Below are positions 19,393-55,218 of a DNA stretch of 64,000 nucleotides, piece after piece. Positions within the stretch are counted from its first letter, which is position 1. The number at the start of each line of letters is the position of its first letter. This DNA comes from an uncultured bacterium (GTDB lineage: Bacteria > CAYUVA01): positions 1-64,000 of the forward strand of contig CAYUVA010000014.1 of the NCBI GenBank assembly GCA_964448115.1, in the 5' to 3' direction. The position numbers and the translations under genes are program-made. The notes under the pieces were generated by a model. That model saw only the letters and a program-made list of their open reading frames with translations. It ran no database searches and had not been told where the DNA came from.

Positions 19393-22116
19393 TCATCTCA
19401 CATCGAGGTATGGCCACATGAAGCTGCGGTTGTCATCCACATCAGTGGCCATTAGTCCCAGTAAAAAGTAGCTCGGTTGCAGGTCCTTGTCGCCGAACAA
19501 GTAATCCCAGCCAAAGATACAATCCCCTCGCTCGAAGTCATCATGGAATCCATCATCGTAAAGCTCGATGCCTAAGCTGAATCCCCCGTAGTAAACCTCC
19601 ACCATCTCCACGGATTCACAGCCGCCCTGGTCGCTAAGCAGAGCCATGAAACGAAGCAGACTCGGCTTGCCAGCCTGAAGGTCGCTGTTCCAGTAGCCGG
19701 CGAGGAGAATGACCGGTCTCCCCCCGGGATCGATGGTGGGGCTTGGCGATGGTGTAAATGTGGGCGTAACCGTTGGGGTGAAGGTGGGGGGTCCCTGCTG
19801 CGTCCAGGTGGCGGTGGGCGTGAAGGTCGGCAATGGCGTCGGGGTTGGCGTTGGCGGCAGGTTGGTCCACGGCTCGTAGTCAACATAGTCGCTCACCTTG
19901 TCCCCCAAGCCATCCGGGTTGGTGCTCTCATGGTAAGGACCGCTTGGGTCCCCCCAGTAGTTGTGCTCTGCGTTTATTATCGCTGGCTGCTTGCGCTCCT
20001 GGCCTTGATTGAAGACACCATACTCGCTATTTCCGCTTACATTGCCGTTGTTGAGCACCACTGAGTCGCCGGTAGTCTGCGAGTAAAGACCGTACTGGTT
20101 GTCATAAAGGCTTAAGCCATCTGCATCCAGGTCGGTTCCATTCAGGTTTATGCCCCTGGTACATCCCTTGATTACCCCTCCCCTTATCACAACCGGCGAA
20201 GATGAGGCAGCGGTTATGCCGTTGTTGGGATTGTTTATTATGTTGCAGTTATCCAACTGAAGCCTTCCGCTACCGAATGCTGCCACCGCCGCCTCTACAC
20301 CGCAGGCGGTGAAATTGCAATCGGTCAATTGCGCCATTGCGCTATCGTGCACCGATAGGGCGGCTCCACCATGCTCCGAGTTGAAGCCTCCACCATAAAA
20401 CTGCGTATAATATATTATGGCGCTTCCGTTACCCTTAACCGAGATTCCACCGAAGCGCTTATAGACATTGTTACCTCGGAAGGTTACATTATAGTCGGTA
20501 TTGCCGTTCACCCGCAGGTTGCCATTCACTATCATGGCATCCGATTCCTGGTCAAAGAAGATATTGTTGCCTCCCCAGATAGTAAGCGTCTTGCCCTCTT
20601 GGAGGCTGACCTGCCCGAAGAGATAGGGCAGGGCGCTATTTGCCAGTGAGTTGTTGCGCTCTATCTCGGGACCCTGTATATAGATGCCATCAAAGCGAGA
20701 GTGCCCCACCGCATAGTTGTTCATGCACTGGGGAAAAACATTGCGCGAGTTGACCAGTATAGGTTGCTCTCCACCATGCAGGAAGCGATTGCCGGTGATC
20801 TCGGTCGTGCTGTTTGTCTGTACCCTTATGGTGCCGAAACAGTAGGTAAACTGGCAATCCTGGACGACTCCCCCGCTCGAATCCTTGTAGCTAATGGTCG
20901 TATTTTCCCGCTCGTGAAACCTGCCCCCCTTCTCGAAGATGCAATTGTAGAACTCCATAGTTCCATTTTCATAGGCGGTAAAAGCCCCCCATCCCTCGTC
21001 GGGACGCAGCGGGAAGAATCGCACCTTGCCAGCCTTTGCCTGTCCAACAACCAGGTTACCCCTGACATCGATGCGGCTCGGTCCCTGCTCGAAGTATATG
21101 GTAACACCGGGATCGATCTGAAGCGTAGCCCCGTCGCTGATATCAAAGCCGGGAACCTCGAAGCCAAGATTGCCCATGATGGTGCTGTCATGGGTAACAT
21201 TGCCAAATATCACCTTTACCCTATTGCTGGTTGCGTTGCGCTGGGCAGTGTTGTTGAACAAGGCGGGGAAACGCCCAGCAGCGTTTATCTGCATCGGGTA
21301 GTCGTGCCCGTCGCTGAAGCTACAGTTGTTCACGCTGCTGGTCTCCGAAGAGTCGAAGTAAACCGCTCCCTTGCAGCGTATAAAATCGCAGTGATCCAGG
21401 TTTATCCTGGCAGCCTCCTCCACCGTGATGCAGCGATAGCCGGTTACCGAGAACTTGCCGCCATCAGATACCTGCGTATAGGCGAAGTTGCCAGTCCCGT
21501 TCCCCTTGAAGTGGATGCCAGACCAGTCGTTTTGTGGCGAGGCAGCCGATAGATATACCGGGGACATCGAGGTTCCCATCGTATTCATCGTGCCCTCGAC
21601 CTGGATGCGCGAGTCGTACTCCATGAAACGGACATAGCAGTTCGGCTCAATCGTTAAGGTCAATCCTGGCGGAATGCGTAACAGGTGAAAGACGCGCAGG
21701 ATCTCATCGGTATGCCAGGTCAGATTGTCTGCCAGGAAATCTCCGCTTATCTCGCCAGCAACCCCGCTGTCCTCGATAGGTTGACCAATATTCTGCCATT
21801 GTCCGCCCTGGAACTTCTGGAACTGCAAGCGATAGGTATAGCTTGCATTATATGTCAATCCACCATCTCTCAGGTAGCGATCGCCATTGGTGTACCAGGT
21901 CCACTCGCTGGGATGATCGCTATTTCGTATCAATATATAGCGCTCCGTCTCCGGGGTGAGGATATTATCGATCACCAGGTGTATATCGATAGTGTCATTG
22001 CTCACCACTGCAATCTCCAGGCTCGCTTTAGCGCAATAGCCGCTTGCCGGCAAGCCAAGAACCGCGATAAAACATAGCATCAACGCAAAGCTCATCTTCG
22101 CTTTGTATATCAACAT
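19393..22116 (-). CDS. Secreted right-handed parallel beta-helix protein with Pro/Thr linker and C-terminal AGY...WPYL module
   Basis: AAGGAG RBS, signal peptide, repeated WSGIHF/WGAF/FGGI beta-helix units, NAEHNYWGDPSGP..GDKVSDYVDYEPW, PTPTP linker, C-terminal module at about 19396-19716. Confidence 0.8.
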   Translation of the reverse strand: MLIYKAKMSFALMLCFIAVLGLPASGYCAKASLEIAVVSNDTIDIHLVIDNILTPETERYILIRNSDHPSEWTWYTNGDRYLRDGGLTYNASYTYRLQFQKFQGGQWQNIGQPIEDSGVAGEISGDFLADNLTWHTDEILRVFHLLRIPPGLTLTIEPNCYVRFMEYDSRIQVEGTMNTMGTSMSPVYLSAASPQNDWSGIHFKGNGTGNFAYTQVSDGGKFSVTGYRCITVEEAARINLDHCDFIRCKGAVYFDSSETSSVNNCSFSDGHDYPMQINAAGRFPALFNNTAQRNATSNRVKVIFGNVTHDSTIMGNLGFEVPGFDISDGATLQIDPGVTIYFEQGPSRIDVRGNLVVGQAKAGKVRFFPLRPDEGWGAFTAYENGTMEFYNCIFEKGGRFHERENTTISYKDSSGGVVQDCQFTYCFGTIRVQTNSTTEITGNRFLHGGEQPILVNSRNVFPQCMNNYAVGHSRFDGIYIQGPEIERNNSLANSALPYLFGQVSLQEGKTLTIWGGNNIFFDQESDAMIVNGNLRVNGNTDYNVTFRGNNVYKRFGGISVKGNGSAIIYYTQFYGGGFNSEHGGAALSVHDSAMAQLTDCNFTACGVEAAVAAFGSGRLQLDNCNIINNPNNGITAASSSPVVIRGGVIKGCTRGINLNGTDLDADGLSLYDNQYGLYSQTTGDSVVLNNGNVSGNSEYGVFNQGQERKQPAIINAEHNYWGDPSGPYHESTNPDGLGDKVSDYVDYEPWTNLPPTPTPTPLPTFTPTATWTQQGPPTFTPTVTPTFTPSPSPTIDPGGRPVILLAGYWNSDLQAGKPSLLRFMALLSDQGGCESVEMVEVYYGGFSLGIELYDDGFHDDFERGDCIFGWDYLFGDKDLQPSYFLLGLMATDVDDNRSFMWPYLDVR

Positions 22117-22154
22117 CGCTCTTCTCCTTAGCAATTCTTCACCATGAGTATTCT

Positions 22155-23777
22155 CTATTCAAGCGCCCAAAGATAAGGCCAGAGCTTGCTTTGCAGCCCA
22201 GCATCATCGGTTGCCATAAGCTCGAGCAGGAAACGCTGAGCTGGATATCCGCGATTTATATAAAGATTGGGTATCGCAAAAACACCGCCGCCAAGGTCAT
22301 CCAGGCTAAGCCCAATAGGGATTCCCTTATAACAAATTTCCATCGAGACCACCGATTTGCCCTGCTGACCAACACCATAGCCCAAGATGAACATTATTCC
22401 GCCTTGTTGGGTGGTGATGCGCGTGTTCATGTAGCCGGCAGCGGCTATCTTGGGGGCTGCCGGGGTCGGTGTTGCTGTCGGAGTAGCGGTGATGGTCGGC
22501 GTGGGAGTCGGTGTATCGGGGATGGAATGAGCATAGTAGATCTCACCACTTGGTTGTTGTTCATTTGCCCGCTCAATCCAGACCAGCCCGAGGTAATCCT
22601 CCTGCTCGAATAGCAGCGGATCGAGCTGTGCGCAAAGAGCGCGCTGGGGAGTAACCTTTTTAGGCTCAACGCTGAATGACTCTCCATAGTCCTTACTACA
22701 TGCGTACTTGAGCATCGGCTTTAGAAATCCGCCCTGGTAGTCATTCCATACTACATTGATCACATCCTCATCATCGATGAGCATATCGCACTGGTAATGA
22801 TCATAAAGCTGCACGCCATTTAGCCTCTTAAAGCCATGCCAGCTCTGTCCATAATCGGATGAACGCATGAAGAAGATATGATTATAAAGCTCATCGCTTA
22901 GCAATCCGCTCCAGGCGATGTTCACCCCGCCGCGGCTATCGGTTGCGATAGCCGGCCTTAGCTGTTCAACATCCGAGCCTTGAGGTCGAACCTGGCTGTA
23001 TGAAAAACCAGACTCCAAGGATGGCGACCTGCCGACCCAAACCATCTGGTCATGGACATAAGCCAGGTAGATGATGCCGCTGGGTTGATCGATGACAAGA
23101 TCAGCATCATTCACCCTTCCCGGCGTCTCGATGAGCGTCTGTCGCTCCCAGTACCTTCCATCGCTCTGCGAACGGGCATAGACAAGGCGATCCTCAGCCT
23201 CGCCCAGATGGCTATACTCCCAGAGACACAGCAGGCTACTGCCCCCCAGGTGGCGTAATATTGGACTTTGATTGATAACATTGTTGCCCGTGTTGGAACT
23301 GACCACGAAGGGGATTTCATTAAAGGTTGACCCTCCATCGAGCGAGCGCAGCATATAAAGGTCGGAGCGAACCTGGCTCGCCTGGGGCTTGCTAACATAG
23401 ACGAAATATATGCCCATACCTTGAGCTGACAGGGTAACATCAGTGGAAACTAGTTCAACCGGGCTGCCTGCCTCGGTACTAAGGATGGTTGCCGGTTCAC
23501 TCCAGCTTTTTCCATTATCCAGGGATATGCTAGATTCAATAAAATAGATTCCATCACTCGATCGCTCCACCCAGGCGACTGCGATCACACCTGTATCCGC
23601 CGATATAGCCACCGAAGGCGCTCCTCGATAGGCAATACCATTGGTGGATCCGCTGACCAGCACCGGCTCGCTGAAACTTAAAGGGAAACAGATAACGGGG
23701 AGTGAGAGCACAAGACAGCAGACCATCATGGCTGTAACGATTCGGCAACTATTGCTATTTCCCATCGATGCAATCAT
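22155..23777 (-). CDS. Secreted Asp-box (BNR/sialidase-like) beta-propeller protein with Pro/Thr linker and C-terminal AGY...WPYL module
   Basis: Asp-boxes SLDNGKSW, SLDGGSTF, SSDYGQSW, SKDYGESF; TPTPTP linker; module at about 22158-22454. Confidence 0.8.
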   Translation of the reverse strand: MIASMGNSNSCRIVTAMMVCCLVLSLPVICFPLSFSEPVLVSGSTNGIAYRGAPSVAISADTGVIAVAWVERSSDGIYFIESSISLDNGKSWSEPATILSTEAGSPVELVSTDVTLSAQGMGIYFVYVSKPQASQVRSDLYMLRSLDGGSTFNEIPFVVSSNTGNNVINQSPILRHLGGSSLLCLWEYSHLGEAEDRLVYARSQSDGRYWERQTLIETPGRVNDADLVIDQPSGIIYLAYVHDQMVWVGRSPSLESGFSYSQVRPQGSDVEQLRPAIATDSRGGVNIAWSGLLSDELYNHIFFMRSSDYGQSWHGFKRLNGVQLYDHYQCDMLIDDEDVINVVWNDYQGGFLKPMLKYACSKDYGESFSVEPKKVTPQRALCAQLDPLLFEQEDYLGLVWIERANEQQPSGEIYYAHSIPDTPTPTPTITATPTATPTPAAPKIAAAGYMNTRITTQQGGIMFILGYGVGQQGKSVVSMEICYKGIPIGLSLDDLGGGVFAIPNLYINRGYPAQRFLLELMATDDAGLQSKLWPYLWALE

Positions 23778-23893
23778 CCCTGTATCGTAATGTCTAAAAC
23801 TACATTATACAAGATTCTCAGGTAAATTTCATTTTGGTGATTGACCTGGCTGGAATGATAAGAATCAGGGCTTAAAAGGAGCTATAGACGATG

Positions 23894-26239: not shown

Positions 26240-26281
26240 CAAGTGTCTCCGTATATTCAAATTCTTTCAACAATGCAAGCA

Positions 26282-26310
26282 TCTATAATGAACTGTTGAA
26301 CCATTGTCAA
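26282..26310 (-). promoter_or_regulatory. Putative sigma70 promoter of lon
   Basis: Minus strand TTGACA, 17 nt, TATAGA. Confidence 0.45.
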
Positions 26311-26451
26311 GGTGCTTTTATCTTGCTTATGATTAAAGATTATATTGCCTTTAGCTCAAGGGAAATTGCCTTGAATATTGTATTATGTGGAAGAACTCGC
26401 ATAAGCAAAAAAGTCTTAATCGATCTGAAAATCTGTTGAATTCAAACTCTA

Positions 26452-27035
<584 letters not shown>

Positions 27036-27043
<8 letters not shown>

Positions 27044-28619
27044 GCCGGTTCGTTTCTCTGAGCATAAAAAGTGCTGCCCCATTGTCGAAATATCTGATCG
27101 GCTGGTAATTTTGCTGAAAGCGATAGCCATTCACCAACTCGATATAGCCAGGATATGGTAAGCCGAAGTAGGTATTCTTTATGTATGGCGATAGGTATAT
27201 CCACTCGATGGGGATGTAATCCTTATTGCAGCGCCATATATCATGTGCGGGGATTATTGGGCGCATACATCGCCTCCGCGCATCGGTTGCCACTATCCAT
27301 GAGATATCTGACAAGACCATGTCATTTGGGGGGATCAAGCCCTTTAATACCAGCATATTACGGCGATCAGCCTCAAGATAATAGTATCCATGTTCACTTG
27401 TGATTTCTCGAAATAAAGGGATACTGATCACGACCAGCAAGCCTGCGGAGATAGCATGAAAAGCTATTGAGTAAGAATTATTCCTAGCGGTTATCCCCTC
27501 CAGCGCCCTTTTTACTCCAAAAAATGCCAGTGGAATCATCAAAGGAACCAGGTGGAAATAGTAGCGCGGGGTCTGGAGGATAAAGTTGTATGCCAGGATC
27601 TGGCTAATCAAAACCAGGAGCAATGCCTTGTAAAATAACCGACGACGCTTATCCCCAAGTCCAAAATAGCCCCATATCGCCAATGGAAAAAAGACCATGT
27701 ATTCCTTGAAGATAAAATCAGCATCCAACAACCTCGCCATCTCATTGAGCCATTTGCTGATATACCTGCTTGGATATTGGGCATATAACGCCGGGATGGA
27801 TAGAGCCTGTAGCCGACATCCGAGATCGACCCATGCGCGATCAGGCGAGAAGTATATTGCAAGGTTTCTAACCAGGCTGAAATTGAAAAAGGGCTTGCCA
27901 GAGTAATGTATATTATGCGCCAGCAAGGGTGATGCTACGGCTAAAAATAAGGCAAACAATATGGTTAAGCCCCGCGCTCGAAGACGCCTGCTTCCAAGTA
28001 TGAATAAAAACGCTATTGCTGGAATCGATAACAGGATGTTGCTCCTTTGCAGATATCCAAGCCCCAAAAAAATCCCTGATAGAGCTGCATGTATCGGCTT
28101 TCGATCCCGAAGATATAAATATAAAAAAATGAACAAAGCGGTATAAAGAAAGGCAAACCCAGACTCGGTCATGCCGTTTATGCTATAGGTTAATATGGAG
28201 TTGCATAGAAGATATCCTAATGAAGATAAAAAGCCTATTCGATAATCGAACAATAAAGACCCCAAAATATAAATCAGAGCCACGGTTGCAATAAAAAAGA
28301 AGCCGGAAACGGCAGCGGCGATGACCTGGTAATTTGCTGCCCCAAACATGGACATAAGAAAAGCTAATAACAACGGATGCAGCCAAAAGCGGTGCAGGTT
28401 GGGGATATTATCATCGAATAATCCATTTTGCGCATAAAATGGCACCTGGTGAGGGAATACCTGTAATGTCGAGTTGCCCTTGCCAGCCTCAATCTGCATA
28501 GCGATCTGAGCATAGTCGTAGGCATCTGGTATCATAAGCCCGCGATACACCAATGAGAAATAGACACTCCAAACCGCAACTGCCAGAAAGATGATTAGAA
28601 CCAAGCCCCTATTTTCCAT
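27036..28619 (-). CDS. GT-C fold glycosyltransferase (ArnT/PMT, GT39-like)
   Basis: PDAYDYAQIA, many TM helices, GMTES, GLGYLQR, PRYYFHLVP. Confidence 0.75.
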
Positions 28620-29156: not shown

Positions 29157-32100
29157 TCACCTACATGTCACCTGCAGGGTATAAGATGCTGGCGTTTCTT
29201 GCTCGCCATCGACTACGATGTAGTAAGTCCCGCCTATTATAATCGGCAAGGTAACCTCATAGTCCCCCCATGCCCAGCAATACTCCTCGCTGCAGCCTAG
29301 CATCTCGTTGCCGTAGATAATGAATACATCGACATCTGCGCCACCTGCGGTCAGGGTTACCGTGATCTCCTCGACTGATCCCTGCTCGATCTCAAGCGCA
29401 TGAACCATCTCAGGTCCGCTCATTAGGGCAGAGTCGGTGCAATGTCCACCGTACTGCTCAACATTCGCATTTCCATTAGCCGTGTTGCCGCTGTAAACGC
29501 CACCGCATGAAAGATTGACTGGGTTGCTGCAATCAAGCTCTCCCGGCATCGGTGTCATGGTGATGGTTACAGTAATTGCCGGCGTCGGAGTCGGTGTATC
29601 TGCTCCACCGGTAGGGGTTGCTGTCGGTGTGCGGAATGGCTGGCAGGATGTCTTGAGCGTATAAGCTCCATAATCGCTATCCCTGTAGCCGTCAACCACG
29701 ATGAAATATCGCCCGGCAACAGCATCCTCAACGGTCAGGGTTCGCTTGTACGCGGAGGCGACCTCTCCTTGCGCGTAGCAGTGGTTCTCGCTGCAAGAGC
29801 TTAGCAAGAAGAAATTTAGGCTCTTGGGATGGTACCCGCTCAGCTCGATGCCTAGATCTCCATCCGAGATCCAAAGCTCGTGCACCACCTCCCTGCCAAA
29901 GAACTGGTCGAACTCCTCGCAGCTATAACTATCGATATCGCTGCTCCCTAAGCTGCTGTCCCCGGTGTATGGAGAGTTGCACTGTATGATCACCGCGTCG
30001 CTGCAATCGAGATCTCCCGGCGGATTGGTCGGCGAAGGGGTTGCTGTCGGCGTCGGAGTCGGCGTTGCGGTGCCCCCAGCGGTGATTGTCAGATATGGCC
30101 ATAGGTAGCTCTCGTTACCTGCCTGGTCTCTTGCCAGGATCTCAAGCAGGTAGGAACCAGGAGCGGCTCCTGGATTGATGCTGGTCGCTAGCGTATAGAG
30201 ACTATCATTCGCTGTCGCATCGCCCTGGCTGCCGTCATCCTTCAGAAAGACGCCGGTCGGTGCGCTATCATAGAATATCTCCACATTCTGGACATCCTCA
30301 TCCGGGTCGGTTACCCAGGCGATTAGGTTGAACTTGCCCCCGCTGGCAGTGGTTATGTGCGTATCCATATATCCAGCCAGATTAACGAAGGGGCGGCTAC
30401 CTCCCTTGCAAGGAACCCCCTTCCGTTCACGGGGGGGATTGAGGGGGGGGATTTGACTATAACATTCAACATTATCCATGCCGCTAACGGTGGCTAGATA
30501 ATGCTGCTGCCAGGAGTCGATGGGCAGCCTGAATTGCGATGCGAAAAGGTTCTCTGGGGTGGCTGCATTCCCCGATTTATCCGGATAAGGCTCGCTATCG
30601 AAGCTCTTTATCTTAAGATATGGAAAAAGGTTGCTTACATAGCCTTGTTTGTTGGTAGCTACCGCTTCAAGGAGATACAGCCCTTGCGGTGGCTTATCCG
30701 AGGGGGAGAAATTAGCTGTGAAACCGAACACGCCATCGGATGCTGCAAAATCCCCGCTCTGCCCGTCATCGCGGAACAATGCTCCAGTAGGCTTGCCGTC
30801 AAAGTACATCTCGACTGTGGCGATATTATCCGCACCGCGCACATCGCTTACCACGAGCAAGAATTTAAGCTCTCCGCCGCTGTAATGGGTAACAATAGTA
30901 TCCATATATCCGCCGGCGAGGATGGTTGGGGGACCGGATGCCTGTGGCTGTCCTTTGAGCGTGCGCATGAATATACCGCCGATGGAGTCCTCCCAGATTA
31001 TATAGAATGTATCCTTGTATCCAGCCACAGCGGGGAACTCCAGGCATTTCTCGACCACGGGCACGATAAATGCCTCATCGGGAAGATTAGTTCCCTGGGT
31101 TACATAACAGATCAGCTTATCGCTTGCGTTGGTTACGCTGCAAGAGCCGGTATCATTCAGCTTCATATCCGGAAATACATCGAAGACCTGGATTATCTGC
31201 TGTTCAATGTCGATATTCTCTACAGCCTTATGCATCCATTGCGAGCCGTCGAAAAGCCCGTAGCCATAATGGCTCAGGTAGAAGAAAACCTCGTAAAGGG
31301 CGGAATAAATCGGGTACCCGATGTGCACGCGATCCTGATCATCGACCTCGACCCTGAGCGCGCCAGCCCAGTTGCCCCATGATGTAACCTGTTCGATCGC
31401 CCCCCAGACTCCGCCGCTTTTCTTGCGCCAGAAGACCTCGGCTGCGTCCATATTGCCCACCGGGCTGTACCAGGCAACATAAACCTCGCCCTTTGAGTTT
31501 ACCCCGATGCCAGCCTTTTCGCCATAGACCGCCCGATTGGAGATGACAAAGGCGGGGTCGTTGGGCGGGGGAAGCCACTGCCCGCCGACCCTTTGAACAT
31601 AGCAAATAAGATCATACCCATCCATGGGATCGTTGGGGGCATAAGTCTCTACGAAAGCAATATGTATATTGTCCGAGTTATCTATGGCGATATCAGGCCA
31701 GGATGACCAGTTAGTCTCGCCGTGGCTGACATACTCTGCCTGCGGCATCCACTGTTTGTTGGTCATGCGATTGTAGTATATGGGACCGGTCTTGGGTCGC
31801 CCCAGGCTGCACCAGACAACATGGGGATTGCCCGCGCTATCCAATGCGATGCGCGCTCTGCCGAACTGCCAGTCAGCCTGAGTCGGAGCCGGAACCACAT
31901 CCGGCAGCGAGGTATCCCACGCCGGGGGATCAACCCCGTTCCACTGGCTCAGCAGGTACTTGCGGTAGTAGATGACATTGGTCACAGAAAGGGTAACAAC
32001 ATGAAGATCACCGTTATCATCGAAGGCGGCATGGGGATACCTGGAGCCGATCTGCATGTTCACGATAGGACCCAGGTTTATATCGCCATAGCCGGCTGTA

Positions 32101-32159
32101 ACCATCATGCATACTAAGCCAATGGCAGCAGGAATAGAGTATCGTCTGGAGCAAAGCAT
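29157..32159 (-). CDS. Secreted modular protein: beta-propeller, two AGY...(F/W)PYL modules, Pro/Thr linkers, two Cys-rich PPC-like domains
   Basis: Propeller blades IALDSAGNPHVVW and IAIDNSDNIHIAF; modules at about 30607-30929 and 30081-30392; duplicated LDCS..C..Y.G...GRE/GPE.VH.L...YFIVVDG domains. Confidence 0.8.
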   Translation of the reverse strand: MLCSRRYSIPAAIGLVCMMVTAGYGDINLGPIVNMQIGSRYPHAAFDDNGDLHVVTLSVTNVIYYRKYLLSQWNGVDPPAWDTSLPDVVPAPTQADWQFGRARIALDSAGNPHVVWCSLGRPKTGPIYYNRMTNKQWMPQAEYVSHGETNWSSWPDIAIDNSDNIHIAFVETYAPNDPMDGYDLICYVQRVGGQWLPPPNDPAFVISNRAVYGEKAGIGVNSKGEVYVAWYSPVGNMDAAEVFWRKKSGGVWGAIEQVTSWGNWAGALRVEVDDQDRVHIGYPIYSALYEVFFYLSHYGYGLFDGSQWMHKAVENIDIEQQIIQVFDVFPDMKLNDTGSCSVTNASDKLICYVTQGTNLPDEAFIVPVVEKCLEFPAVAGYKDTFYIIWEDSIGGIFMRTLKGQPQASGPPTILAGGYMDTIVTHYSGGELKFLLVVSDVRGADNIATVEMYFDGKPTGALFRDDGQSGDFAASDGVFGFTANFSPSDKPPQGLYLLEAVATNKQGYVSNLFPYLKIKSFDSEPYPDKSGNAATPENLFASQFRLPIDSWQQHYLATVSGMDNVECYSQIPPLNPPRERKGVPCKGGSRPFVNLAGYMDTHITTASGGKFNLIAWVTDPDEDVQNVEIFYDSAPTGVFLKDDGSQGDATANDSLYTLATSINPGAAPGSYLLEILARDQAGNESYLWPYLTITAGGTATPTPTPTATPSPTNPPGDLDCSDAVIIQCNSPYTGDSSLGSSDIDSYSCEEFDQFFGREVVHELWISDGDLGIELSGYHPKSLNFFLLSSCSENHCYAQGEVASAYKRTLTVEDAVAGRYFIVVDGYRDSDYGAYTLKTSCQPFRTPTATPTGGADTPTPTPAITVTITMTPMPGELDCSNPVNLSCGGVYSGNTANGNANVEQYGGHCTDSALMSGPEMVHALEIEQGSVEEITVTLTAGGADVDVFIIYGNEMLGCSEEYCWAWGDYEVTLPIIIGGTYYIVVDGEQETPASYTLQVTCR

Positions 32160-32267: not shown

Positions 32268-34130
32268 TTATATCTTGACCTCTGCGACCTTGAACTGCAT
32301 GTCGTGTAGCTTCTTGTAGAGCCTTCCTTGGCGCATAAGCTCCTCGTGGGTGCCCTGTTCGGCTATCTTACCGCCATCAATCACGATGATACGATCCGCA
32401 TTCGATATGGTGGAAAGTCGATGGGCGATGACGATTGTAGTGCGATTCTTGACCAGGTTGATGATCGCCTGTTGCACTATAAGCTCGGACTCTGTATCCA
32501 GCGATGATGTCGCCTCGTCGAGGATCAGTATCGGCGGGTCTTTGAATATAGCCCTGGCGATGGATATGCGCTGGCGCTGTCCGCCGGAGAGCTTCAGCCC
32601 CCCTTCGCCTATGATGGTATCGTATCCCCTGGGAAACTCGGTGATAAAATCGTGGGCATAAGCCTTCCTCGCAGCATCGATGACCTTTTCTTCAGATACA
32701 TCTCGCTTGCCATAAGCGATGTTATTGCGGATTGTATCGTTGAACAGGATCGTATGCTGGCTGACGATGCCTATTTGTTCCCTAAGAGATCTTGTTGTAG
32801 CCCTGCGTATATCTATGCCATCGATGAGTATAGCGCCCTTTGTAACATCGTAGAACCTGGGGATCAGGTTTGCCAGGGTTGTCTTCCCCACGCCGCTTAA
32901 GCCGACAATAGCAAGGGTTTCTCCCTTTTCTATTTCCAAATTAAAGCCAGCCAGGATCCACTCCGTATCCTTCTCGTACTTGAAGTAAACATCTCTAAAC
33001 TCGATTGATCGCTTTATCGGTTCGATATCCACTGCATCGGGCGCATCGACTATGGTCGGCTCTGTGTCCATTACCTCGAAGATACGGGCGGCGGCGGCGA
33101 GTGCTCGCTGGATGGCGTAGTTGACCATTCCGACCTTCTTGAAGGGGCTGTACATCATAAAAAGCGCTCCAATGAACGCCCAGAAGGTTCCGGTGGTTAT
33201 TGCGCCGGCTATCACCCACTTGCCGCCTAGCCAGAGTATTATCGCAGCCAGTATTGCTCCTATAAATTCCATCAGCGGTGTAGAGAGTGCCTCAGCGCGT
33301 ACCGTGCGTACTATGTATTTATAGTACTTGTTATTAGCTCTCCTGAACTTCTCCGCCTCGAAATGCTCCATGTTGAAAGCCTTTACTATGCTGATACCGC
33401 CGAAGGTTTCCTGGCAGACGGTATTTATCTCTCCCAGCTTCTCCTGGCTGGTCTTGCTGGTCTTGCGCATGCGCCGGGCAAGGCGGATTATCGGATAGGC
33501 AGACAACGGAAGCACTAAAATGGCGATAAAGGCGAGCTTCCAGTGCAGTAATATCAGCACAATTATCAAGCCAACGATAGTAAATGATTCCTTGATGATA
33601 TCGCTGATCACCGTGCTAATGCCCTGTTCCATGATCATCACATCGTTGGAGACGCGGCTTATGAGGTCGCCCTGGCGATGATCCTTGAAGTACTGTATAG
33701 GAAGGCGCTCTATATGGGTGAAAAGCTGATATCGTAAGTCCCTTATGCCACGCTGGGCAACATCCTTCATGATCACCTTCTGGAAGTAGTTGGTCAACCC
33801 CTTTAACAAGAACATGATGATCAGAATAAAGGGAATGATCGCTAGCAGCTTCGTATCACCCTTGATAAAGACATTATCTATCGCGGGTTTGGCAAGATAT
33901 ACCGGCGAGGAGGTAAAAAGCCCGTAAAGCACCATGCAAACCATCGCGATAATGAACTGGCGCTTATAGGGGTAAATATAGCGAATAAGCCTTTTATAAA
34001 GCCCAAGGTCGATGCCTTCCTTGAGGATATTGTCCAGAAAAAGCAGCTTGGCTAAGGAAATAAGGCGGCGAGCAGACACCTCAGCAAGCCGACAAACCTT
34101 ATCTTTTAGATTCTTTTGTTCAGAACTCAA
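32268..34130 (-). CDS. msbA: MsbA-like lipid A export ABC transporter (permease plus ATPase)
   Basis: 6-TM domain; GLSGVGKTT, LSGGQRQR, ILILDEATSSLD, IAHRLST; start codon uncertain. Confidence 0.75.
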   Translation of the reverse strand: MSSEQKNLKDKVCRLAEVSARRLISLAKLLFLDNILKEGIDLGLYKRLIRYIYPYKRQFIIAMVCMVLYGLFTSSPVYLAKPAIDNVFIKGDTKLLAIIPFILIIMFLLKGLTNYFQKVIMKDVAQRGIRDLRYQLFTHIERLPIQYFKDHRQGDLISRVSNDVMIMEQGISTVISDIIKESFTIVGLIIVLILLHWKLAFIAILVLPLSAYPIIRLARRMRKTSKTSQEKLGEINTVCQETFGGISIVKAFNMEHFEAEKFRRANNKYYKYIVRTVRAEALSTPLMEFIGAILAAIILWLGGKWVIAGAITTGTFWAFIGALFMMYSPFKKVGMVNYAIQRALAAAARIFEVMDTEPTIVDAPDAVDIEPIKRSIEFRDVYFKYEKDTEWILAGFNLEIEKGETLAIVGLSGVGKTTLANLIPRFYDVTKGAILIDGIDIRRATTRSLREQIGIVSQHTILFNDTIRNNIAYGKRDVSEEKVIDAARKAYAHDFITEFPRGYDTIIGEGGLKLSGGQRQRISIARAIFKDPPILILDEATSSLDTESELIVQQAIINLVKNRTTIVIAHRLSTISNADRIIVIDGGKIAEQGTHEELMRQGRLYKKLHDMQFKVAEVKI

Positions 34131-40654: not shown

Positions 40655-42310
40655 ATGGGCTGCGACTATATATGGAAATTCGGCGAGCATAAGGGCATCA
40701 AGTGCGCTAGAGAGCCTGTACTAGAGGATGGCAAGTGCTTCTGGCATTCAACGGTGCCTAATAAGATATACCCGGGTGATGCGCCTCCCAAAAGCGAGCT
40801 GCAGGCTCTGGTGGATGAGGGACATAGCCTGGAGGGATTCGTGCTTGTCGATATGGATCTGCGAAATATAAGCCTCAAAGGAGCGAACCTGCGTCGTGCG
40901 CTCTTACGAGAGGCAAGGCTTCATAAATCCAAGTTCACCGAGTGCGATTTCTACCAGGCTGATCTCAGAGGCTCGAAGCTAATCGGCGCCATGTTCAGGC
41001 ACTGCGATCTCACCCTTGCCGACTTCGAGGGTGCAATTATGCAGGAAGCGGATTTTTCAGGCAGCAACCTTTACGAGGCGAATCTGCAGGATGCAGAGCT
41101 TGAGGGCGCCAAGCTGATCGATGTCAACCTTGGCGGTGCAACGCTTATAAACGCAAACCTGTTCGGCACCGACCTGCAATACTCGAACCTTCACGATGCG
41201 ATCTTCGAGAATGCCAACCTGGAATGCGCCAATCTTTCCTATGCGGATCTAAAGGGAGCTGTGCTTTTGAATATCGATTATAATCCGCTGACCTTGATCA
41301 AGGACATGCGCAACCTGGAGCTGGCACACCAGGCGCCGCCTGAATGGCTGAAGGCATTACAGAAGAAAAAGTTCGAGGAGGTGGTTAGCCCCATAAAGTT
41401 CGATAAGAGCCAGATCCCGATGGTGCAGAGATCCATCGCCAACCTGCGCAACGATGATTTGTTCGGCGATAATAACGAATATCGTATCATAAAGAAGATC
41501 GGCAAGGGTGGTTATGCCTTTGTTTATAAGGTCGAAGACCTTACCGACGAAGAGAACCCAATAAAGGCGATCAAGATCCTGGATCCCCACCTGGGAGCTG
41601 ATCAACTCACCATCAAGCGTTTCAAGCAGGAAGGACTCATCGGCAAGAAGGTCAGGAATCCGAGGATCGTGGTTACCTATGATTTCAAATACACCAACAA
41701 GTATGACACCTTCTACCTGATAATGGAGTATGTTCAGGGTACCGATCTGCGGCGAGTGATCCGCAAGTACCAGAAACAAAAGAAGTCCGTGCCTTTTAAG
41801 ATGTGCCTGAGCCTGTTTTACCAGATCTGCCAGGGCTTGAAGGTCGCGCATGCCGAAGGGATTGTGCACCGGGATCTCAAGCCGGGAAACATCCTAATAC
41901 GAACCGATGGAACCGCCGTATTGACCGATTTCGGATTATCGAAGATAACCGCTACCCTGGAGACCTCAATGCACATACAGACCAAGACCGGCACCGTAAT
42001 GGGCACATTCGAGTACATGTCCCCAGAGCATGTAACCAGCATGGATATCGATGAGCGCTCCGATATATATTCACTCGGCGTGGTTATTTATGAGCTATTC
42101 ACCCTGAAAATGCCTTACCAGGGGGACAATCTACTTGCTTGGGTTCATGTAATTCGGGGCAAGAACCCAGAGCCACCATCGAATATCAATCCTGATATCC
42201 CATCTTGGCTGGATAAAATGGTGCTTAAATGCATGGCAAAGAAAGTGAGTGAACGATACCAGACGGTCGATGAGATCATTGCCGATATTAAGGTAAACAT
42301 TAAAAGATAA
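40655..42310 (+). CDS. Pentapeptide-repeat / Hanks-type Ser/Thr protein kinase fusion
   Basis: A(D/N)Lxx pentapeptide tract; GKGGYAFV, AIKIL, HRDLKPGN, DFG, GTFEYMSPE, DIYSLG; no TM segment. Confidence 0.9.
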   Translation: MGCDYIWKFGEHKGIKCAREPVLEDGKCFWHSTVPNKIYPGDAPPKSELQALVDEGHSLEGFVLVDMDLRNISLKGANLRRALLREARLHKSKFTECDFYQADLRGSKLIGAMFRHCDLTLADFEGAIMQEADFSGSNLYEANLQDAELEGAKLIDVNLGGATLINANLFGTDLQYSNLHDAIFENANLECANLSYADLKGAVLLNIDYNPLTLIKDMRNLELAHQAPPEWLKALQKKKFEEVVSPIKFDKSQIPMVQRSIANLRNDDLFGDNNEYRIIKKIGKGGYAFVYKVEDLTDEENPIKAIKILDPHLGADQLTIKRFKQEGLIGKKVRNPRIVVTYDFKYTNKYDTFYLIMEYVQGTDLRRVIRKYQKQKKSVPFKMCLSLFYQICQGLKVAHAEGIVHRDLKPGNILIRTDGTAVLTDFGLSKITATLETSMHIQTKTGTVMGTFEYMSPEHVTSMDIDERSDIYSLGVVIYELFTLKMPYQGDNLLAWVHVIRGKNPEPPSNINPDIPSWLDKMVLKCMAKKVSERYQTVDEIIADIKVNIKR

Positions 42311-46470: not shown

Positions 46471-46500
46471 ATCGGCGAAAGAGCGCCTGGTAAATCATCC

Positions 46501-46725: not shown

Positions 46726-46769
46726 TGATGGGGAATATTGGTGAAGCGATGAAGTATGCTCTGGCAATC

Positions 46770-47531: not shown

Positions 47532-47769
47532 GTTTATTAATTTATACTTTATAGAGAGTGAATACAAGATTTTTTCAATGTTTTATTATTACTTGTTTTC
47601 TTTGCCACTTCGCAACTTTTTATCCTGCCAGACAACGGCAAGGCGATTGGCGAGTCAGACTCCGCATTCACTAGGCTTGATGCCCGGTCTGATGAATCGG
47701 TAATCAGGAGATATCATTTCAGGCTCTGTCTATTCAACGACTAAGATTGTTTTTACAATACAGCAAACT

Positions 47770-48114
47770 TCATCGATGCTCTTTGATTATTACCTTGAGT
47801 TGTTCAATCAATTTAGGGAGATCACTATTTATAATTTTCCATAAAATATCAAGATCAATCGCGTCATAGCCATGTATTAATTTATTTCTAAATCCTATAA
47901 TCTGGCGCCAAGGCACATTAGGATACATTGTACGGAATTCGTATGGAACTCTTGAAGCAGCCTCACCTATAACTTCCATTATCCTAACCAGCGCTAGGTT
48001 CAATACTCTATTGGAGTCTAGATCTGAACGAGAAAGATTTGAAGCAAGTTTAAAGCCTTCTTTTGCATAATCAAGCATGTGATGAATATAAATTATTGGA
48101 TTATGCCGTGTCAT
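47770..48114 (-). CDS. hepT: HEPN (DUF86/HepT-like) ribonuclease toxin
   Basis: EVIGEAA, PWRQIIGFRNKLIHGY (R-x4-H-x-Y). Confidence 0.88.
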   Translation of the reverse strand: MTRHNPIIYIHHMLDYAKEGFKLASNLSRSDLDSNRVLNLALVRIMEVIGEAASRVPYEFRTMYPNVPWRQIIGFRNKLIHGYDAIDLDILWKIINSDLPKLIEQLKVIIKEHR

Positions 48115-48412
48115 AGATCACCTTTGCTTCATTTAATATTTCTTTCTTAAAATATGGACTCAAAAAACCAGGGGTATTTAGATCTACTTTTCTGCCTAGA
48201 AGTTCAGATAATTCATCTTGAATATCGAAAAAATCCAGACCCGGAATATGCTCCGGCTCGAATTCAACTAGAACATCAATATCACTATGCGAGCCAAAAT
48301 CATCTCTTATTACTGATCCGAACAAGGACAACTTTCTGATGTGATGCTTCTGACAAAACTTGGCGATCTTATCTTGAGAAATATTAACCTTTGATCCATC
48401 ATCCAAAACCAT
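48101..48412 (-). CDS. mntA: Minimal nucleotidyltransferase antitoxin (MNT)
   Basis: LFGSVIRDDFGSHSDIDVLVEF, LGRKVDL; overlaps the HEPN gene. Confidence 0.88.
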   Translation of the reverse strand: MVLDDGSKVNISQDKIAKFCQKHHIRKLSLFGSVIRDDFGSHSDIDVLVEFEPEHIPGLDFFDIQDELSELLGRKVDLNTPGFLSPYFKKEILNEAKVIYDTA

Positions 48413-48591
48413 GCCTGTAACCTATATTATTTATTTTATCGTATCAGAATCATTTTTCAAGAAATCAACATATTTCTTTGTGATATACTCTTTCCATGAT
48501 TATCAAGTAGTGCTAATATAAAATGTTAATTTTGGCTGGTGCAACCAACCTTATGCCCAAGGGCACAATGAAATACAAGGAGTGAAACTAG

Positions 48592-51387: not shown

Positions 51388-51431
51388 AATCGAGGATGGA
51401 TTGTATTATAAATACCTAAAGGAAGGGTGGG

Positions 51432-52859
51432 ATGGTTATGAGTAAATCAGTCCCAGGCTTGATAATTCTGTTGCTTATCTTGCTTGGCAGCGCACTAGGT
51501 TACGCCGAGTCTGAAGATAAAGCAATCCAAGTAACCGACGATGCAAGCAAGCAAATCGCCTATCGGCTCTCCATTCACTACACGGCTGACTTGAAGAATG
51601 AACTGACCCCCTGTGGGTGAGGCAAGAACCGCTCAGGCGGACTAGCCCGGCGGGCTACTGAAATTGCAAAATTCAAACAGCAGCACCCAGAGAACCTGTA
51701 CATCTGGGTCGATGCTGGCAACAGATTCCTCAATTGGAATGAGCCGAATCGCCATCGAGCCGAGGGGATGATAGATATCCTTGATCATTTGGGGCTTCAG
51801 GCTGCTAACCTCGGAAAGAACGACTTCAACTACGGATTCGATTTTCTGCTTGAGAACATGCAGAAGACCCAGGTAAAGCTCATCTCGACAAACATAGTCA
51901 ATAAGGAGAGTGGGGAGCCGGCAGCCTTGCCTTATTGGATCAAGCAATTCAATCCCACGGATCATAATGCCCTGTTTGGAAAAAAGGCGATTAAAGTCGG
52001 GATCCTCGGCGTGATCAATCCGACCTTCGAGTTTCGCCTTGAAAAAGACAAGCAAAATATGCAGAGCCTCTCCTTCATCCGCGCCCTGCAATTGAAGCTA
52101 TCATTCTTACGCAGGCAATGCGATGTAATAATCGTGCTGGCTGCCTTAGGATTGGATCAGGCTCGCAATCTACCAAAGAGCGTTAACGGAATCGATGTGA
52201 TCATCTCCAGCGAGTTCCCCGGTGCGCTCGTTCCGCCACAATTATTGAAGGATAGACAGGATAGACAGGTCATTCTTTGCAGCCCGCAGGATAGAGGCAA
52301 ATCGTTCGATGTTCTGACATTGATGCTTGATGAAAAGAAAAACATAGTCGATTTCACCAACCTTCATACACCCCTTGATACGAAAGTTAAGGAAAACAAG
52401 GCGATCCTAAGGCTTGTAAATGACTACGAGGGCAAGTACCAATACCTGTACCGGTACAATCGCTTCTCCAAGTCGGGACACATATTTTACCAGGGCGCAT
52501 TAGGATGCAAGCGCTGCCACGAGGAGCAGTTTACAGCCTGGCAAGCAACCAGGCACGCCACCGCCTACAATACGCTTGTGCAGGCAAATGCAGACAAGAA
52601 TGAGACCTGCCTTCCATGTCATGTAACCGGCTATGGTAAAAAAAGCGGGTTCGAGCAGAATAATATCTCGCTTCGCAAGGCGAATGTCCAATGCGAATCT
52701 TGCCATGGACCCGGCTCTTTGCATATCTCCCACCCCAATAATCTATACGGAAAGACCGATGAGAGCACCTGTATAAAGTGCCACACAGGCGATTACGGAA
52801 AGGATTTCAACTATAAAAAATACCTCAAGATGATAGGCTGCGGACGGAAGAAGCAATAG
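51432..52859 (+). CDS. Probable selenoprotein: UshA-like (degenerate 5'-nucleotidase) domain with CxU motif fused to a tetraheme cytochrome c (475 aa via UGA at 51618-51620)
   Basis: Signal peptide; ADLKNELTPCG-TGA-GKNRSGGLARRAT reads in frame with no further stop into the 51768 ORF; VDAGN, ANLGKNDF; CKRCH, CLPCH, CESCH, CIKCH. Confidence 0.8.
51621..51660 (+). promoter_or_regulatory. Candidate bacterial SECIS element
   Basis: Hairpins ccgc-tcag-gcgg and tagccc-ggc-gggcta immediately 3' of the in-frame UGA; the second has a G-first loop 28 nt after UGA. Confidence 0.55.
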
Positions 52860-52889
52860 GCTTTAACCGTGAGGGGCGATTATTTTTAA

Positions 52890-53015
52890 GACCACAAAGG
52901 CATCCCGAAAGATCGGGGCTCAAGGACAAAATTTATTTTCTTTGCATGCTTTGCGTCTTTGCGTGCACAATTCCTTCTTTCTTTGCGTGCTTTGCGTGAT
53001 ATTCTTTAGTGGTTA
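52890..53015. repeat. Intergenic repeat family copy
   Basis: accacaaagg...ctttgcatgctttgcgtctttgcgtg...ctttgcgtgctttgcgtga...ctttagtggtt. Confidence 0.6.
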
Positions 53016-53040
53016 GGTAACCCCCAATAGCCAAGCACCA

Positions 53041-55218
53041 TCAGTGTATCTGTACATAGGGCCACATATCGCTGGTGAAGCCGAAGCTGTCTGTTGCAAC
53101 GATGTTCAGCAGGTATCTTCCCGGTGGCACAGGGGCATCGACATTAAGCATGTTTGCAAATATTCTATCGTTTGGCTCGAAGTCTCCATGTTCTCCATCA
53201 TCGAATAGATATATTCCTGTCGGTATAAATCCGTAGTATAATTGAACCGCCATCTGCTCAGTGCTATTGCCAAAGAAGGGTTCCACATAAGCGAAGATGC
53301 GGACGCTGCCTCCGACTGCGGGCTTGATGTCATTATCAAGGTATCCGGCGATGCAGATATAGGGTCCAATAACCGATTTGCCGTTTATTGTTTCCAGCAT
53401 GGCAGCCTGGTAGCTGTAGTAATCTGCTGATTCTCCGATGTTCAGGTATGGCCAGGGCTGGCTGTACCTGCCATGTTTGTCTCTTGCCTTTACTTCGAGC
53501 AGGTATTGTCCTTCTGGCATCAAGGCTGGGATCGAGGTTTTGAAGGTGTACAATCCATCGTCGGCTATTGCATCACCATTTATCCCGTCATCGTTGAGGA
53601 ACAGGCTGGTTGGGAAGTCTTGCACATAGACACGGACCTCGTCGATGTCCTCTCTACCATCGAGATCGTTAACCCACGCCAGCATGGTGAATTCTCCACC
53701 ATGCAATTCAGTGAGCCTTGTCTTCCAGTACCCTCCCCCGAGGATAGTCGGTGGACTGCTGGAGGGGGGCTGGGGTGGTGTCCACTTATATCCGAAAACA
53801 ATAGAAACCCGCCAGGCATTTGGCTGCCCAGAATCCATTTTATTTCCGATGATAAGATCATCAATACTATCACCGTTTATATCAAGACCACTTGCAATAC
53901 ATTTACCTACAGCATTATTTGCATGAACACCAACAAAGCTATAGGAATTTTCATCTATCAAATATTCGCTTTGCCAGCTATTTTGATTATTGAAAAGAAG
54001 ATATAATTTTCCATAGTTCCTTTGATCATCAATATCGAGAAAAGGATTTCCCAAAGGAATATCAAGATACCCGTCATTATTAAAATCACCTGGTGTCCCC
54101 ATTAATTTGCAGGCTTGATTATTGTAATAATAGATGGATATATCAGCATCATCAACACTCATTGAAGCCTCCCAGTTTTGCCTGCCCAAAATTACTATAT
54201 TCTTATTGAGAGGAGGTATATACAATATGATATCATCGTATCCATCATTATTTATATCGCCCCCAACCCCAATTGTCTGTCCAAGGTGGCAATTAGTGTA
54301 AGGTGAACGAATTTGGATTTCAGCCTCTTCAATAGAATACACTGAACCAGTTGGTTTAGTATTACCACCTAGTATAATAAAAACCCTTCCTCGGAAGGAT
54401 GCGAAATATCTTGCTCCAACAATAATATCATTAAAGCCATCCCCATTCACATCTCCAGCACCACAAATCTGCCACCCTAATCTGCTATCGGCATAAGGGC
54501 TATAATAAACAAGCTCTGCTGATGTAAAGGCAACTATACCGGTTTTTCTGATTGTTGATCCCAGAAAAATAGCTATAGTACCGGCATTTTGGGCGCCATA
54601 ATCGTCAAGCTCAATCCCGATAGCTATATCATCAACGCCGTCTCCATTGAAGTCTCCAACTCCATCAAGAGTCAAGCCAGCTCTATCTCGACTTGAATCT
54701 CCTGTAATAATAAAATCTGCTTGGTTTAGGTAATAGATCTCATTCCAGGTTGGACGACCATATATTAGATATGCTCTACCCTTATCAGAGCCTGTATCCC
54801 ATCTGCCAGGTGCACCAATTAAGATGTCCTGATATCCATCGCCATCGAAATCTCCTGCATCGGCAACAGAAAAACCAGCCAAACCATTAGGAATATGACC
54901 ATAGAATATTACATCAGCATCATTCAAAGACAATTGGCTAGGCCATTCGATTCTACCGAAAAATAAGTATGCTGCTCCAGCTAGTGCGCCGCCTGTATTT
55001 GTCTCCATCGATCCCATAATGATATCATTAAGATCATCGCCATTAACATCTCCAAGATTGCTGATCCAGAATTCACCATGATCATAAGGATATAATGTTC
55101 CCTGCAAAGTACCATTAATGGTTACATTGGCGCTCGATATTGGCTCATTCGGTGCAAACCCAAGCCCAATAGCTTGAAACCCTAGAATGCCTATTAGTAT
55201 TAAGATAACCATCCTCAT
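53041..55218 (-). CDS. Secreted FG-GAP (integrin-alpha-like) beta-propeller with two C-terminal AGY...WPY modules
   Basis: Repeats GDVNGDDLND, GDFDGDGYQDILIGAP, GDFNGDGVDD, GDVNGDGFND, GDINNDGYDD, GDFNNDGYLD, LDINGDSIDD; modules at about 53434-53751 and 53044-53364. Confidence 0.85.
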   Translation of the reverse strand: MRMVILILIGILGFQAIGLGFAPNEPISSANVTINGTLQGTLYPYDHGEFWISNLGDVNGDDLNDIIMGSMETNTGGALAGAAYLFFGRIEWPSQLSLNDADVIFYGHIPNGLAGFSVADAGDFDGDGYQDILIGAPGRWDTGSDKGRAYLIYGRPTWNEIYYLNQADFIITGDSSRDRAGLTLDGVGDFNGDGVDDIAIGIELDDYGAQNAGTIAIFLGSTIRKTGIVAFTSAELVYYSPYADSRLGWQICGAGDVNGDGFNDIIVGARYFASFRGRVFIILGGNTKPTGSVYSIEEAEIQIRSPYTNCHLGQTIGVGGDINNDGYDDIILYIPPLNKNIVILGRQNWEASMSVDDADISIYYYNNQACKLMGTPGDFNNDGYLDIPLGNPFLDIDDQRNYGKLYLLFNNQNSWQSEYLIDENSYSFVGVHANNAVGKCIASGLDINGDSIDDLIIGNKMDSGQPNAWRVSIVFGYKWTPPQPPSSSPPTILGGGYWKTRLTELHGGEFTMLAWVNDLDGREDIDEVRVYVQDFPTSLFLNDDGINGDAIADDGLYTFKTSIPALMPEGQYLLEVKARDKHGRYSQPWPYLNIGESADYYSYQAAMLETINGKSVIGPYICIAGYLDNDIKPAVGGSVRIFAYVEPFFGNSTEQMAVQLYYGFIPTGIYLFDDGEHGDFEPNDRIFANMLNVDAPVPPGRYLLNIVATDSFGFTSDMWPYVQIH

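Follow-up and report, generated by a model that had tools for sequence, protein, structure and literature searches.

What does a protein module do when it recurs in exported proteins that otherwise have nothing in common? This question is raised by a 64,000-nucleotide stretch of DNA from an uncultured bacterium (contig CAYUVA010000014.1, positions 1 to 64,000), the whole of which we refer to as the window. Four minus-strand open reading frames (ORFs) in it, called carriers 1 to 4 here, hold six copies of one module. The original prediction, made from the DNA letters, was that this module is a lineage-specific tag that sorts or anchors its carriers at the cell surface. We found that the six copies are members of a real, so far unnamed domain family of about 107 amino acids (aa). 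Beyond what had been noticed before, the usual form of the family is a tandem pair, and its two unrecognized end motifs, AGY and WPYL, form a predicted interface between modules. As the best explanation of the whole, which we hold tentatively and put a little short of an even chance, the family would provide a self-pairing C-terminal unit for surface retention or assembly.

The six copies are members of an unnamed domain family

Module positions were determined by a motif search on the translations of the four ORFs, and all six lie within a few bases of where they had been placed (Table 1). Aligned over 111 columns, the copies have 11 invariant positions and are 29 to 47% identical to the first copy. 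A hidden Markov model (HMM) built from them and run against 745 six-frame segments of the window found exactly these six, with domain E values from 1.2e-35 to 8.3e-46; the next best segment had an E value of 0.068. A chance origin of the six-copy match was rejected, both by this search and by a DNA motif run against shuffled sequence (see below). A hydrophobic, signal-like segment begins all four carriers, Pro/Thr linkers precede most copies, and the module is the extreme C-terminus of three carriers, just as had been described; carrier 3 continues for 307 residues.

The passengers in front of the modules are unrelated, as had been claimed. Pfam recognized Beta_helix (83 bits) and NosD (28 bits) in carrier 1, BNR_2 (38.5 bits) in carrier 2, and FG-GAP (126.6 bits over 7 stretches) in carrier 4. 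The passenger of carrier 3 has no significant Pfam family, only weak matches to BNR_4 and PDIAV_lipo, and its similarity to the BNR passenger of carrier 2 was not significant (E 0.095). The copy in carrier 2 had been said to lack the DDG..GD loop. In the alignment, that loop is shortened. The database version of carrier 1 (P0126, 907 aa) is identical throughout and starts 6 codons later.

A cross-taxon count with a six-copy HMM had been proposed together with the original prediction. Among 1.84 billion proteins, such a profile matched 1470 cluster representatives at an E value of ≤1e-3, 607 at ≤1e-10, and 166 at ≤1e-30. No Pfam model covers the module in the four carriers, where the only traces were Big_7 (E 0.0079) and Y_Y_Y (E 0.073), and none scored above its cut-off over the modules of 52 proteins from the best 150 matches, although in P0033 the first module is touched by part of a Big_13 match (27.3 bits). 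A search of Protein Data Bank (PDB) sequences with the module profile gave nothing better than an E value of 0.15, and an ESM Atlas search with the tandem pair returned unnamed clusters only (scores of 0.91 to 0.93), from which no lead was taken; a separate search for homologous proteins yielded 14 matches, likewise without names. A full-length match to a characterized domain was found in none of Pfam, NCBIfam, and PDB sequences. The AGY and WPYL ends are covered by no Pfam or NCBIfam model, which bears out the view that they lie outside any named family.

The module shares its core with the choice-of-anchor X repeat

The Asp/Gly-rich core of the module had been likened to choice-of-anchor X, and this likeness held. 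NF041940, the 37-aa NCBIfam model of choice-of-anchor X, scored 43.2 bits on carrier 3 and 52.8 bits on carrier 4 against a cut-off of 25, in two stretches each, one per module; on eight family representatives it scored 22 to 53 bits. Two giant proteins, P0006 and P0008, have 10 to 11 canonical choice-of-anchor X repeats (243 and 250 bits to NF041940), and these repeats match the module HMM only at about columns 17 to 99. When 290 modules were compared with 22 repeats of these two proteins by hhalign, the match had a probability of 98.2% (E 5e-14) and extended only over columns 17 to 96 of 108. Because the homology is limited to these columns, the module can be described as a choice-of-anchor X-type core with end strands of its own. 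Those strands are strongly conserved across carriers just 30 to 40% identical: P3 in 91%, G9 in 96%, W102 in 86%, and P103 in 99%. Judged by its sequence, then, the family branches off from the choice-of-anchor X repeat, with P-x-I-x-x-[AG]-G-[YF] as its family-specific first strand and W-P-Y-L-x-[IV] as its family-specific last strand.

Most family proteins end in a tandem pair

We read the architecture of the family from 152 proteins, namely, the best 150 of the 1470 matches (three of them from the window itself) plus carriers 1 and 2. Four of the 152 are giant proteins with 5 to 12 partial copies each, and the other 148 are called family proteins here. Exactly two modules were present in 142 of the 152, four in 1, and one in 5, and the median linker between paired modules was 35 aa. 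The last module lay within 5 aa of the protein end in 116; at least 18 aa followed it in 33, four of which are the giants. By a crude rule, a hydrophobic N-terminal stretch was present in 106, and many of the remaining 46 look truncated, since they begin within a module or lack a start residue. Ranking by score favors two-copy proteins, and therefore a second set was used, which was found by the DNA motif and is unranked. In this set, 50 of 65 distinct ORFs had two modules and 15 had one, and 55 of the 63 ORFs with a visible stop codon ended within 2 aa of the module.

The passengers were surveyed with Pfam in 52 of the 150 best matches. They included FG-GAP (6), BNR/Sortilin (6), PKD (4), beta-helix/DUF1565 (4), PQQ propellers (4), and Peptidase_S8, or subtilases (4), as well as a Peptidase_M14 carboxypeptidase, LTD, a prenyltransferase-like toroid, fn3, and Big domains; 16 of the 52 proteins had no Pfam family at all. 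Thus, the usual architecture is a signal peptide, a varied passenger, and then two modules at the extreme C-terminus, and the mostly terminal position on diverse signal-peptide proteins, first seen in four carriers, is borne out in the wider family. We dropped the idea that the first modules form one old subfamily and the second modules another, because the two were only weakly separable, with 53 of 69 and 47 of 69 held-out modules assigned correctly, by 6 and 2.5 bits.

The family is confined to a few uncultured lineages

To follow the module through genomes, we derived a degenerate DNA motif for its last 20 columns from the column frequencies of 290 modules. The motif detects 119 of these 290 modules and 92 of the 148 family proteins; in the window it matched 4 of the 6 copies, and in 100 shuffles it matched none. 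Across 185,579 species genomes (one per species) there were 76 matching loci, and the module HMM confirmed 66 of them, all in 17 assemblies. These are 2 Candidatus Coatesbacteria, 4 candidate division CSSED10-310, 1 labeled Acidobacteriota, and 10 other metagenome-assembled genomes (MAGs). The three richest assemblies hold 12, 9, and 7 distinct module genes. The genome of the window itself is absent from these matches, and the window modules are only 29 to 40% identical to those of the 17 assemblies. Coatesbacteria and CSSED10-310 are both candidate phyla; CSSED10-310 is uncultured, Gram negative by prediction, and reported as sister to Acidobacteriota (PMC8248873). The module family is therefore confined to few uncultured bacterial lineages, in which it has expanded to many genes per genome, and the lineage restriction that had been suspected is supported.

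Ten loci were not confirmed by the HMM. Two are on short contigs (1704 and 2575 bases) of one positive assembly, and the other eight were taken as chance, being single matches in unrelated taxa: Bathyarchaeota, Fervidobacterium (twice), Treponema, Azoarcus, Novosphingobium, Bacteroidales, and a gammaproteobacterium.

An extreme bias to the terminus, diverse cargo, multiple genes per genome, and confinement to few lineages are hallmarks of sorting domains, and a true C-terminal sorting signal is therefore a serious rival explanation. The module would then be a functional analogue of the C-terminal domain (CTD) of type IX secretion systems (T9SS), and outer-membrane machinery dedicated to it and restricted by lineage would recognize the terminal Ig-like unit, carry the cargo out, and either cleave the tag or attach it covalently. 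The extreme C-terminal position (116 of 152 proteins and 55 of 63 in the DNA-motif set), the diverse passengers, the signal peptides, and the presence of multiple genes per genome in just 17 of the 185,579 species genomes all fit such a signal, as does a predicted immunoglobulin (Ig)-like fold of the kind known for T9SS CTDs. Against it, the pair is internal in 29 of the 148 family proteins, where it is followed by PKD or other beta domains, which a terminal signal would not tolerate, and none of these 29 has the membrane-anchor-like tail that we looked for. Unlike the sorting domains already known, the unit normally comes doubled. T9SS CTD models had no match in the four carriers (E ≤ 0.1), in the 52 surveyed representatives (Pfam), or in 10 representatives (NCBIfam), and the 64-kb window holds no machinery gene, that is, no translocon, sortase-like enzyme, or scaffold. 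We regard a sorting signal as unlikely. The original interpretation is partly supported: the fold, the core, the architecture, and the lineage restriction stand, and a sorting or anchoring function is putative.

Modules are predicted to pair through their end strands

The proposed Ig-like fold agrees with structure prediction. A single module, the second of carrier 3, was modeled by AlphaFold as an all-beta domain of nine strands, with a predicted local distance difference test score (pLDDT) of 91.3 and a predicted template modeling score (pTM) of 0.82. Foldseek found 24 PDB matches to this model at an E value of ≤0.001, and among the matches listed all were of the Ig, PKD, FN3, or E-set type, with template modeling (TM) scores of about 0.5 to 0.6. 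The top matches were the Ig-like domain of sulfite oxidase/SorT (E 2.6e-4, TM 0.51 to 0.53). The module fold is thus predicted to be an Ig-like two-sheet beta-sandwich.

Matches to generic Ig, FN3, and PKD folds only are what a plain structural spacer would give. Such a module would be Ig-like but have no function of its own, and the shuffling of domains within a few related genomes would account for its excess at C-termini. Proteins of these types often contain Ig-like spacers, and little separates first modules from second ones. A module that closes a protein, however, has nothing to space. Its terminal position, the even number of copies (143 of 148), and end strands that persist across carriers only 30 to 40% identical also speak against a spacer, as does the controlled complex prediction described next, which was strongly passed. 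A mere spacer is therefore very unlikely.

Carriers 2 and 1 were chosen for complex prediction because they are adjacent and codirectional and have one module each; on the strand that they share, carrier 2 lies directly upstream of carrier 1, and a search for a terminator-like site between the two genes found none. The module of carrier 2 (chain 1) was modeled with that of carrier 1 (chain 2), each with its own 30-row alignment, unpaired. Three runs scored 0.73, 0.82, and 0.83 (median, 0.82), and the best of three controls scored 0.01. In a benchmark that is rough, since our own alignments were used, 116 of 157 solved complexes attained this score, as did 2 of 215 mismatched pairs. The three runs agreed in 100% of their contacts, with partner pLDDT values of at least 77. 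In the predicted interface, residues 4 to 17, 72 to 79, and 94 to 101 of one chain meet residues 4 to 17, 81 to 88, and 102 to 109 of the other, so that AGY lies against AGY and Y-L-L lies against WPYL. The AGY and WPYL strands, which are absent from canonical choice-of-anchor X repeats, are thus the predicted contact surface between modules.

The tandem pair of carrier 4 was also predicted well by AlphaFold (pLDDT, 90.6; pTM, 0.86), with linker residues 111 to 121 and 123 to 125 below a pLDDT of 50; in an alignment of 35 tandem pairs, the linker columns are unconserved. Foldseek with the pair model found no solved two-domain protein of the same arrangement (TM 0.2 to 0.3). We then compared the predicted interface with covariation in 190 pairs. 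The 25 named contacts had a mean inter-module mutual information z-score of 1.06, which exceeded all 10,000 random sets, and the interface block held 23 of the top 100 off-diagonal pairs, where 10.6 were expected and shuffled partners gave 4 to 10. Covariation agrees with the predicted pairing interface only weakly.

A second rival explanation concerns the loop rather than the ends. The module could be a ligand- or substrate-binding module, lectin-like or like a carbohydrate-binding module and possibly Ca2+ dependent, that targets its carriers to a polymer or to other cells, with pairing serving only to build the site. The conserved Asp/Gly-rich loop, D-D-G-x-x-G-D...D-G-x-[YF], is common to the module and the choice-of-anchor X repeats, and a role for it in Ca2+ binding is putative. 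Proteases and adhesin-like repeats are found among the carriers, and such proteins often end in binding domains; a glycan ATP-binding cassette (ABC) exporter is encoded just downstream of carrier 1; and the best Foldseek match of the pair model was the Ca2+-binding adhesin SiiE, but with a TM score of 0.28. Neither sequence nor structure matched a known binding module in Pfam, PDB sequences, or Foldseek, however, and the copy in carrier 2 keeps its end strands despite losing much of the loop. What distinguishes the family is its ends. We think a binding module improbable, and it and the plain spacer are weaker rivals than the sorting signal.

A proposed noncovalent foot for exported proteins

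Among the products encoded in the window are MsbA, a TonB-dependent receptor, and an outer-membrane barrel, and therefore the cell has an outer membrane. In the explanation that we favor, two modules would clasp edge to edge through their family-specific end strands. The clasp would be intramolecular in tandem proteins and intermolecular between single-module proteins, such as the adjacent beta-helix and BNR carriers. The paired unit would serve as a common noncovalent foot that holds a variety of exported proteins on the surface of an outer-membrane-bearing cell or keeps them assembled there. It would not be a cleaved secretion signal.

Several observations weigh against this explanation. Carriers 1 and 2 matched no NCBIfam family at an E value of ≤0.1, so that they fall short of the choice-of-anchor X cut-off. 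The internal pairs, 29 of 148, are followed by 18 to 388 aa. Both chains of the predicted complex are of one family and their alignments were unpaired, and a specific heterodimer is therefore inseparable from general pairing or homodimers. A fixed mutual arrangement of the two modules in tandem may be suggested, but it is read from pTM alone. In the covariation analysis, one slid block of the same size likewise reached 23 of the top 100 pairs, which makes this support modest, and such scores can be raised when the two modules of a protein share ancestry.

Gene neighborhoods, for which we covered 2-kb flanks in other genomes and the 64-kb window for sorting machinery, add two further points to this side. 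Single-module genes elsewhere encode three PQQ-propeller and two BNR/Sortilin proteins, and at the three loci where the downstream side is visible, none is followed by a second single-module gene: the neighbors are a protein kinase (L006), a 425-aa ORF without the module (L027), and a 234-aa ORF without the module (L033). The window contained no sortase, exosortase, T9SS component, translocon, or scaffold.

A further possibility combines clasp and export. The clasped double-Ig unit could be the cargo tag of a lineage-restricted outer-membrane export or attachment pathway in Coatesbacteria, CSSED10-310, and their relatives, parallel to the T9SS CTD but unrelated to it. Single-module proteins would then become competent, or be displayed, only after pairing, as a piggyback or a checkpoint. 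We offer this as speculation and consider it doubtful.

Neighborhoods of module genes and features of the window

Recurrent neighbors in the 2-kb flanks were found only around small single-module proteins, and none of them was like a transporter or a processing enzyme. These small proteins, of about 185 to 265 aa (L011, L015, L018, L019, L029, L042, L052, and L071; P0142 and P0147), consist of a signal peptide followed by some 70 variable residues and a single module, whose score of 116 to 125 bits is as high as for the window copies. There is one per genome, including CSSED10-310 MAGs with no other match, always with a TPR protein upstream plus a convergent gene of about 460 aa. The small single-module protein may be the founding or core member of the module family.

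In the window, envelope-glycan genes lie close to the carriers. The Wzm/Wzt-type exporter is directly downstream of carrier 1 and an MsbA-like gene, with 591 bits (cut-off, 602), lies directly upstream of carrier 3; two PMT_2 glycosyltransferases are found nearby. Such surroundings may be meaningful or not. For the tail of carrier 3, there was no Pfam match at an E value of ≤0.1 and no PDB sequence match at an E value of ≤1, and the PPC label once given to this protein found no confirming match.

Table 1. Carriers, module copies, and other features of the 64-kb window
Feature	Position	Strand	Description
Carrier 1	19393-22134	minus	913 aa; signal-like N-terminus, right-handed beta-helix passenger, Pro/Thr linker, one C-terminal module
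Module copy of carrier 1	19396-19722	minus	Extreme C-terminus; domain E 9.9e-43, HMM positions 1-108
Carrier 2	22155-23777	minus	540 aa; signal-like N-terminus, BNR/Asp-box propeller, Pro/Thr linker, one C-terminal module
Module copy of carrier 2	22158-22460	minus	C-terminus; shortened Asp/Gly loop; domain E 1.2e-35; placed at 22161-22460 by the motif search
Carrier 3	29157-32159	minus	1000 aa; signal-like N-terminus, passenger of ~400 aa, two modules, 307-aa tail
First module of carrier 3	30606-30935	minus	Domain E 1.3e-42
Second module of carrier 3	30081-30398	minus	Domain E 1.4e-44; copy used for the single-module fold prediction
Tail of carrier 3 after the module pair	29160-30080	minus	Two Cys-rich segments of ~130 aa, Pro/Thr linkers between
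Carrier 4	53041-55218	minus	725 aa; signal-like N-terminus, seven FG-GAP repeats, C-terminal tandem module pair
First module of carrier 4	53434-53757	minus	Domain E 8.3e-46
Linker between carrier 4 modules	53371-53433	minus	Unconserved in family, predicted disordered
Second module of carrier 4	53044-53370	minus	Extreme C-terminus; domain E 2.5e-44
Glycan exporter	16976-19181	minus	Wzm/Wzt-type ABC exporter
Lipid A flippase	32268-34130	minus	MsbA-like
Giant protein	35-10228	plus	3397 aa; frame open to window start
Candidate selenoprotein gene	51432-52859	plus	In-frame TGA at 51618-51620; ORF under translation table 11 starts at 51768
Mur ligase fusion	34802-37354	plus	850-aa ORF; Mur ligase (MurF-like domains) fused to complete alanine racemase
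Kinase fusion	40655-42310	plus	551-aa ORF; pentapeptide-repeat region fused to Ser/Thr protein kinase domain
Toxin-antitoxin pair	47770-48412	minus	HepT-like toxin and MntA-like antitoxin (type VII); 39 and 51 bits, below the NCBIfam cut-off of 60
tRNA	26452-26515	plus	64-nt Rfam match, 30.8 bits against a threshold of 29; ARAGORN found no tRNA in the window

Two other genes of the window deserve mention. When its in-frame TGA is read as selenocysteine, the candidate selenoprotein gene encodes 475 aa, which include a signal peptide and the motif P-C-G-U, and a stem-loop follows the TGA. The product reached 270.7 bits on NF041198, the model for UshA-like (seleno)protein, whose cut-off is 275, and is likely a selenoprotein fused to a multihaem cytochrome c554-like tail. 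The giant protein has 27 PKD_4 stretches, SprB-repeat and laminin-G-like matches, and a C-terminal region like GIFT/ABC_transp_aux. It had no module and no T9SS CTD match.

Significance of the module

Shared terminal domains on varied cargo have been the usual route by which new sorting or display systems of bacteria were found. In phyla without a cultured member, a large share of the exported proteome is probably marked by this module, and the marked proteins include proteases and adhesin-like proteins. To our knowledge, nothing is known of how such cells construct their surface. Self-pairing through end strands, as predicted here, is a concrete, testable hypothesis that would explain why the AGY and WPYL motifs exist. 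A dedicated module HMM would also improve the annotation of about 1500 protein clusters that are now unannotated or called only choice-of-anchor X.

Comparison with known systems

The T9SS C-terminal sorting domain is Ig-like, has about 80 to 100 aa, is cleaved by PorU, and occurs once per cargo at the extreme C-terminus. The module resembles it as a C-terminal domain, predicted to be Ig-like, on many diverse signal-peptide cargoes in a restricted set of outer-membrane bacteria. It differs in being doubled in 142 of 152 proteins and internal in 29 of 148, and the module hosts that can be named are Coatesbacteria and CSSED10-310.

Dockerin is a duplicated Ca2+-binding, EF-hand-like helical fold of about 70 aa. 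Like the dockerin-cohesin and SLH systems, the family offers a common, usually terminal module on varied enzymes; those systems work by protein-protein or protein-envelope binding, not by covalent sorting. The duplicated module unit is likewise reminiscent of the duplicated dockerin. However, the module is predicted to be all-beta, with 9 strands, and not EF-hand-like or helical; its predicted partner is a copy of the same module rather than a separate cohesin; and there is no many-copy scaffold among the family proteins, in which the counts are 1, 2, or 4. Pfam dockerin and SLH models had no match in the four carriers (SLH at E ≤ 0.1).

In sulfite oxidase/SorT, an Ig-like domain mediates dimerization. 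The likeness of the module to that domain is at the level of the fold only: the two are 11 to 19% identical, with a root mean square deviation of 4 to 6 Å, and have no sequence relationship.

The closest relative is choice-of-anchor X, a phrase that our literature search did not find. In a report on choice-of-anchor A (10.1101/2023.03.06.531300), choice-of-anchor domains are described as marking surface proteins with alternative anchors and as not being the anchor themselves. In the sense of the name given there, the carrier ends in one of several known anchors, whereas here the module is itself the C-terminus in three of four carriers, and Pfam and NCBIfam found no separate anchor signal (LPXTG, PEP-CTERM, or T9SS) in the four carriers. 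The Asp/Gly-rich core is common to the module family and the canonical repeats. The canonical repeats form long internal arrays of 10 to 11, whereas the module family forms a terminal pair, and the first and last strands of the two differ. Thus, what was already known is the choice-of-anchor X Ig-like repeat, the parent kind of the module, and what is new is an unnamed terminal module that is predicted to pair with itself.

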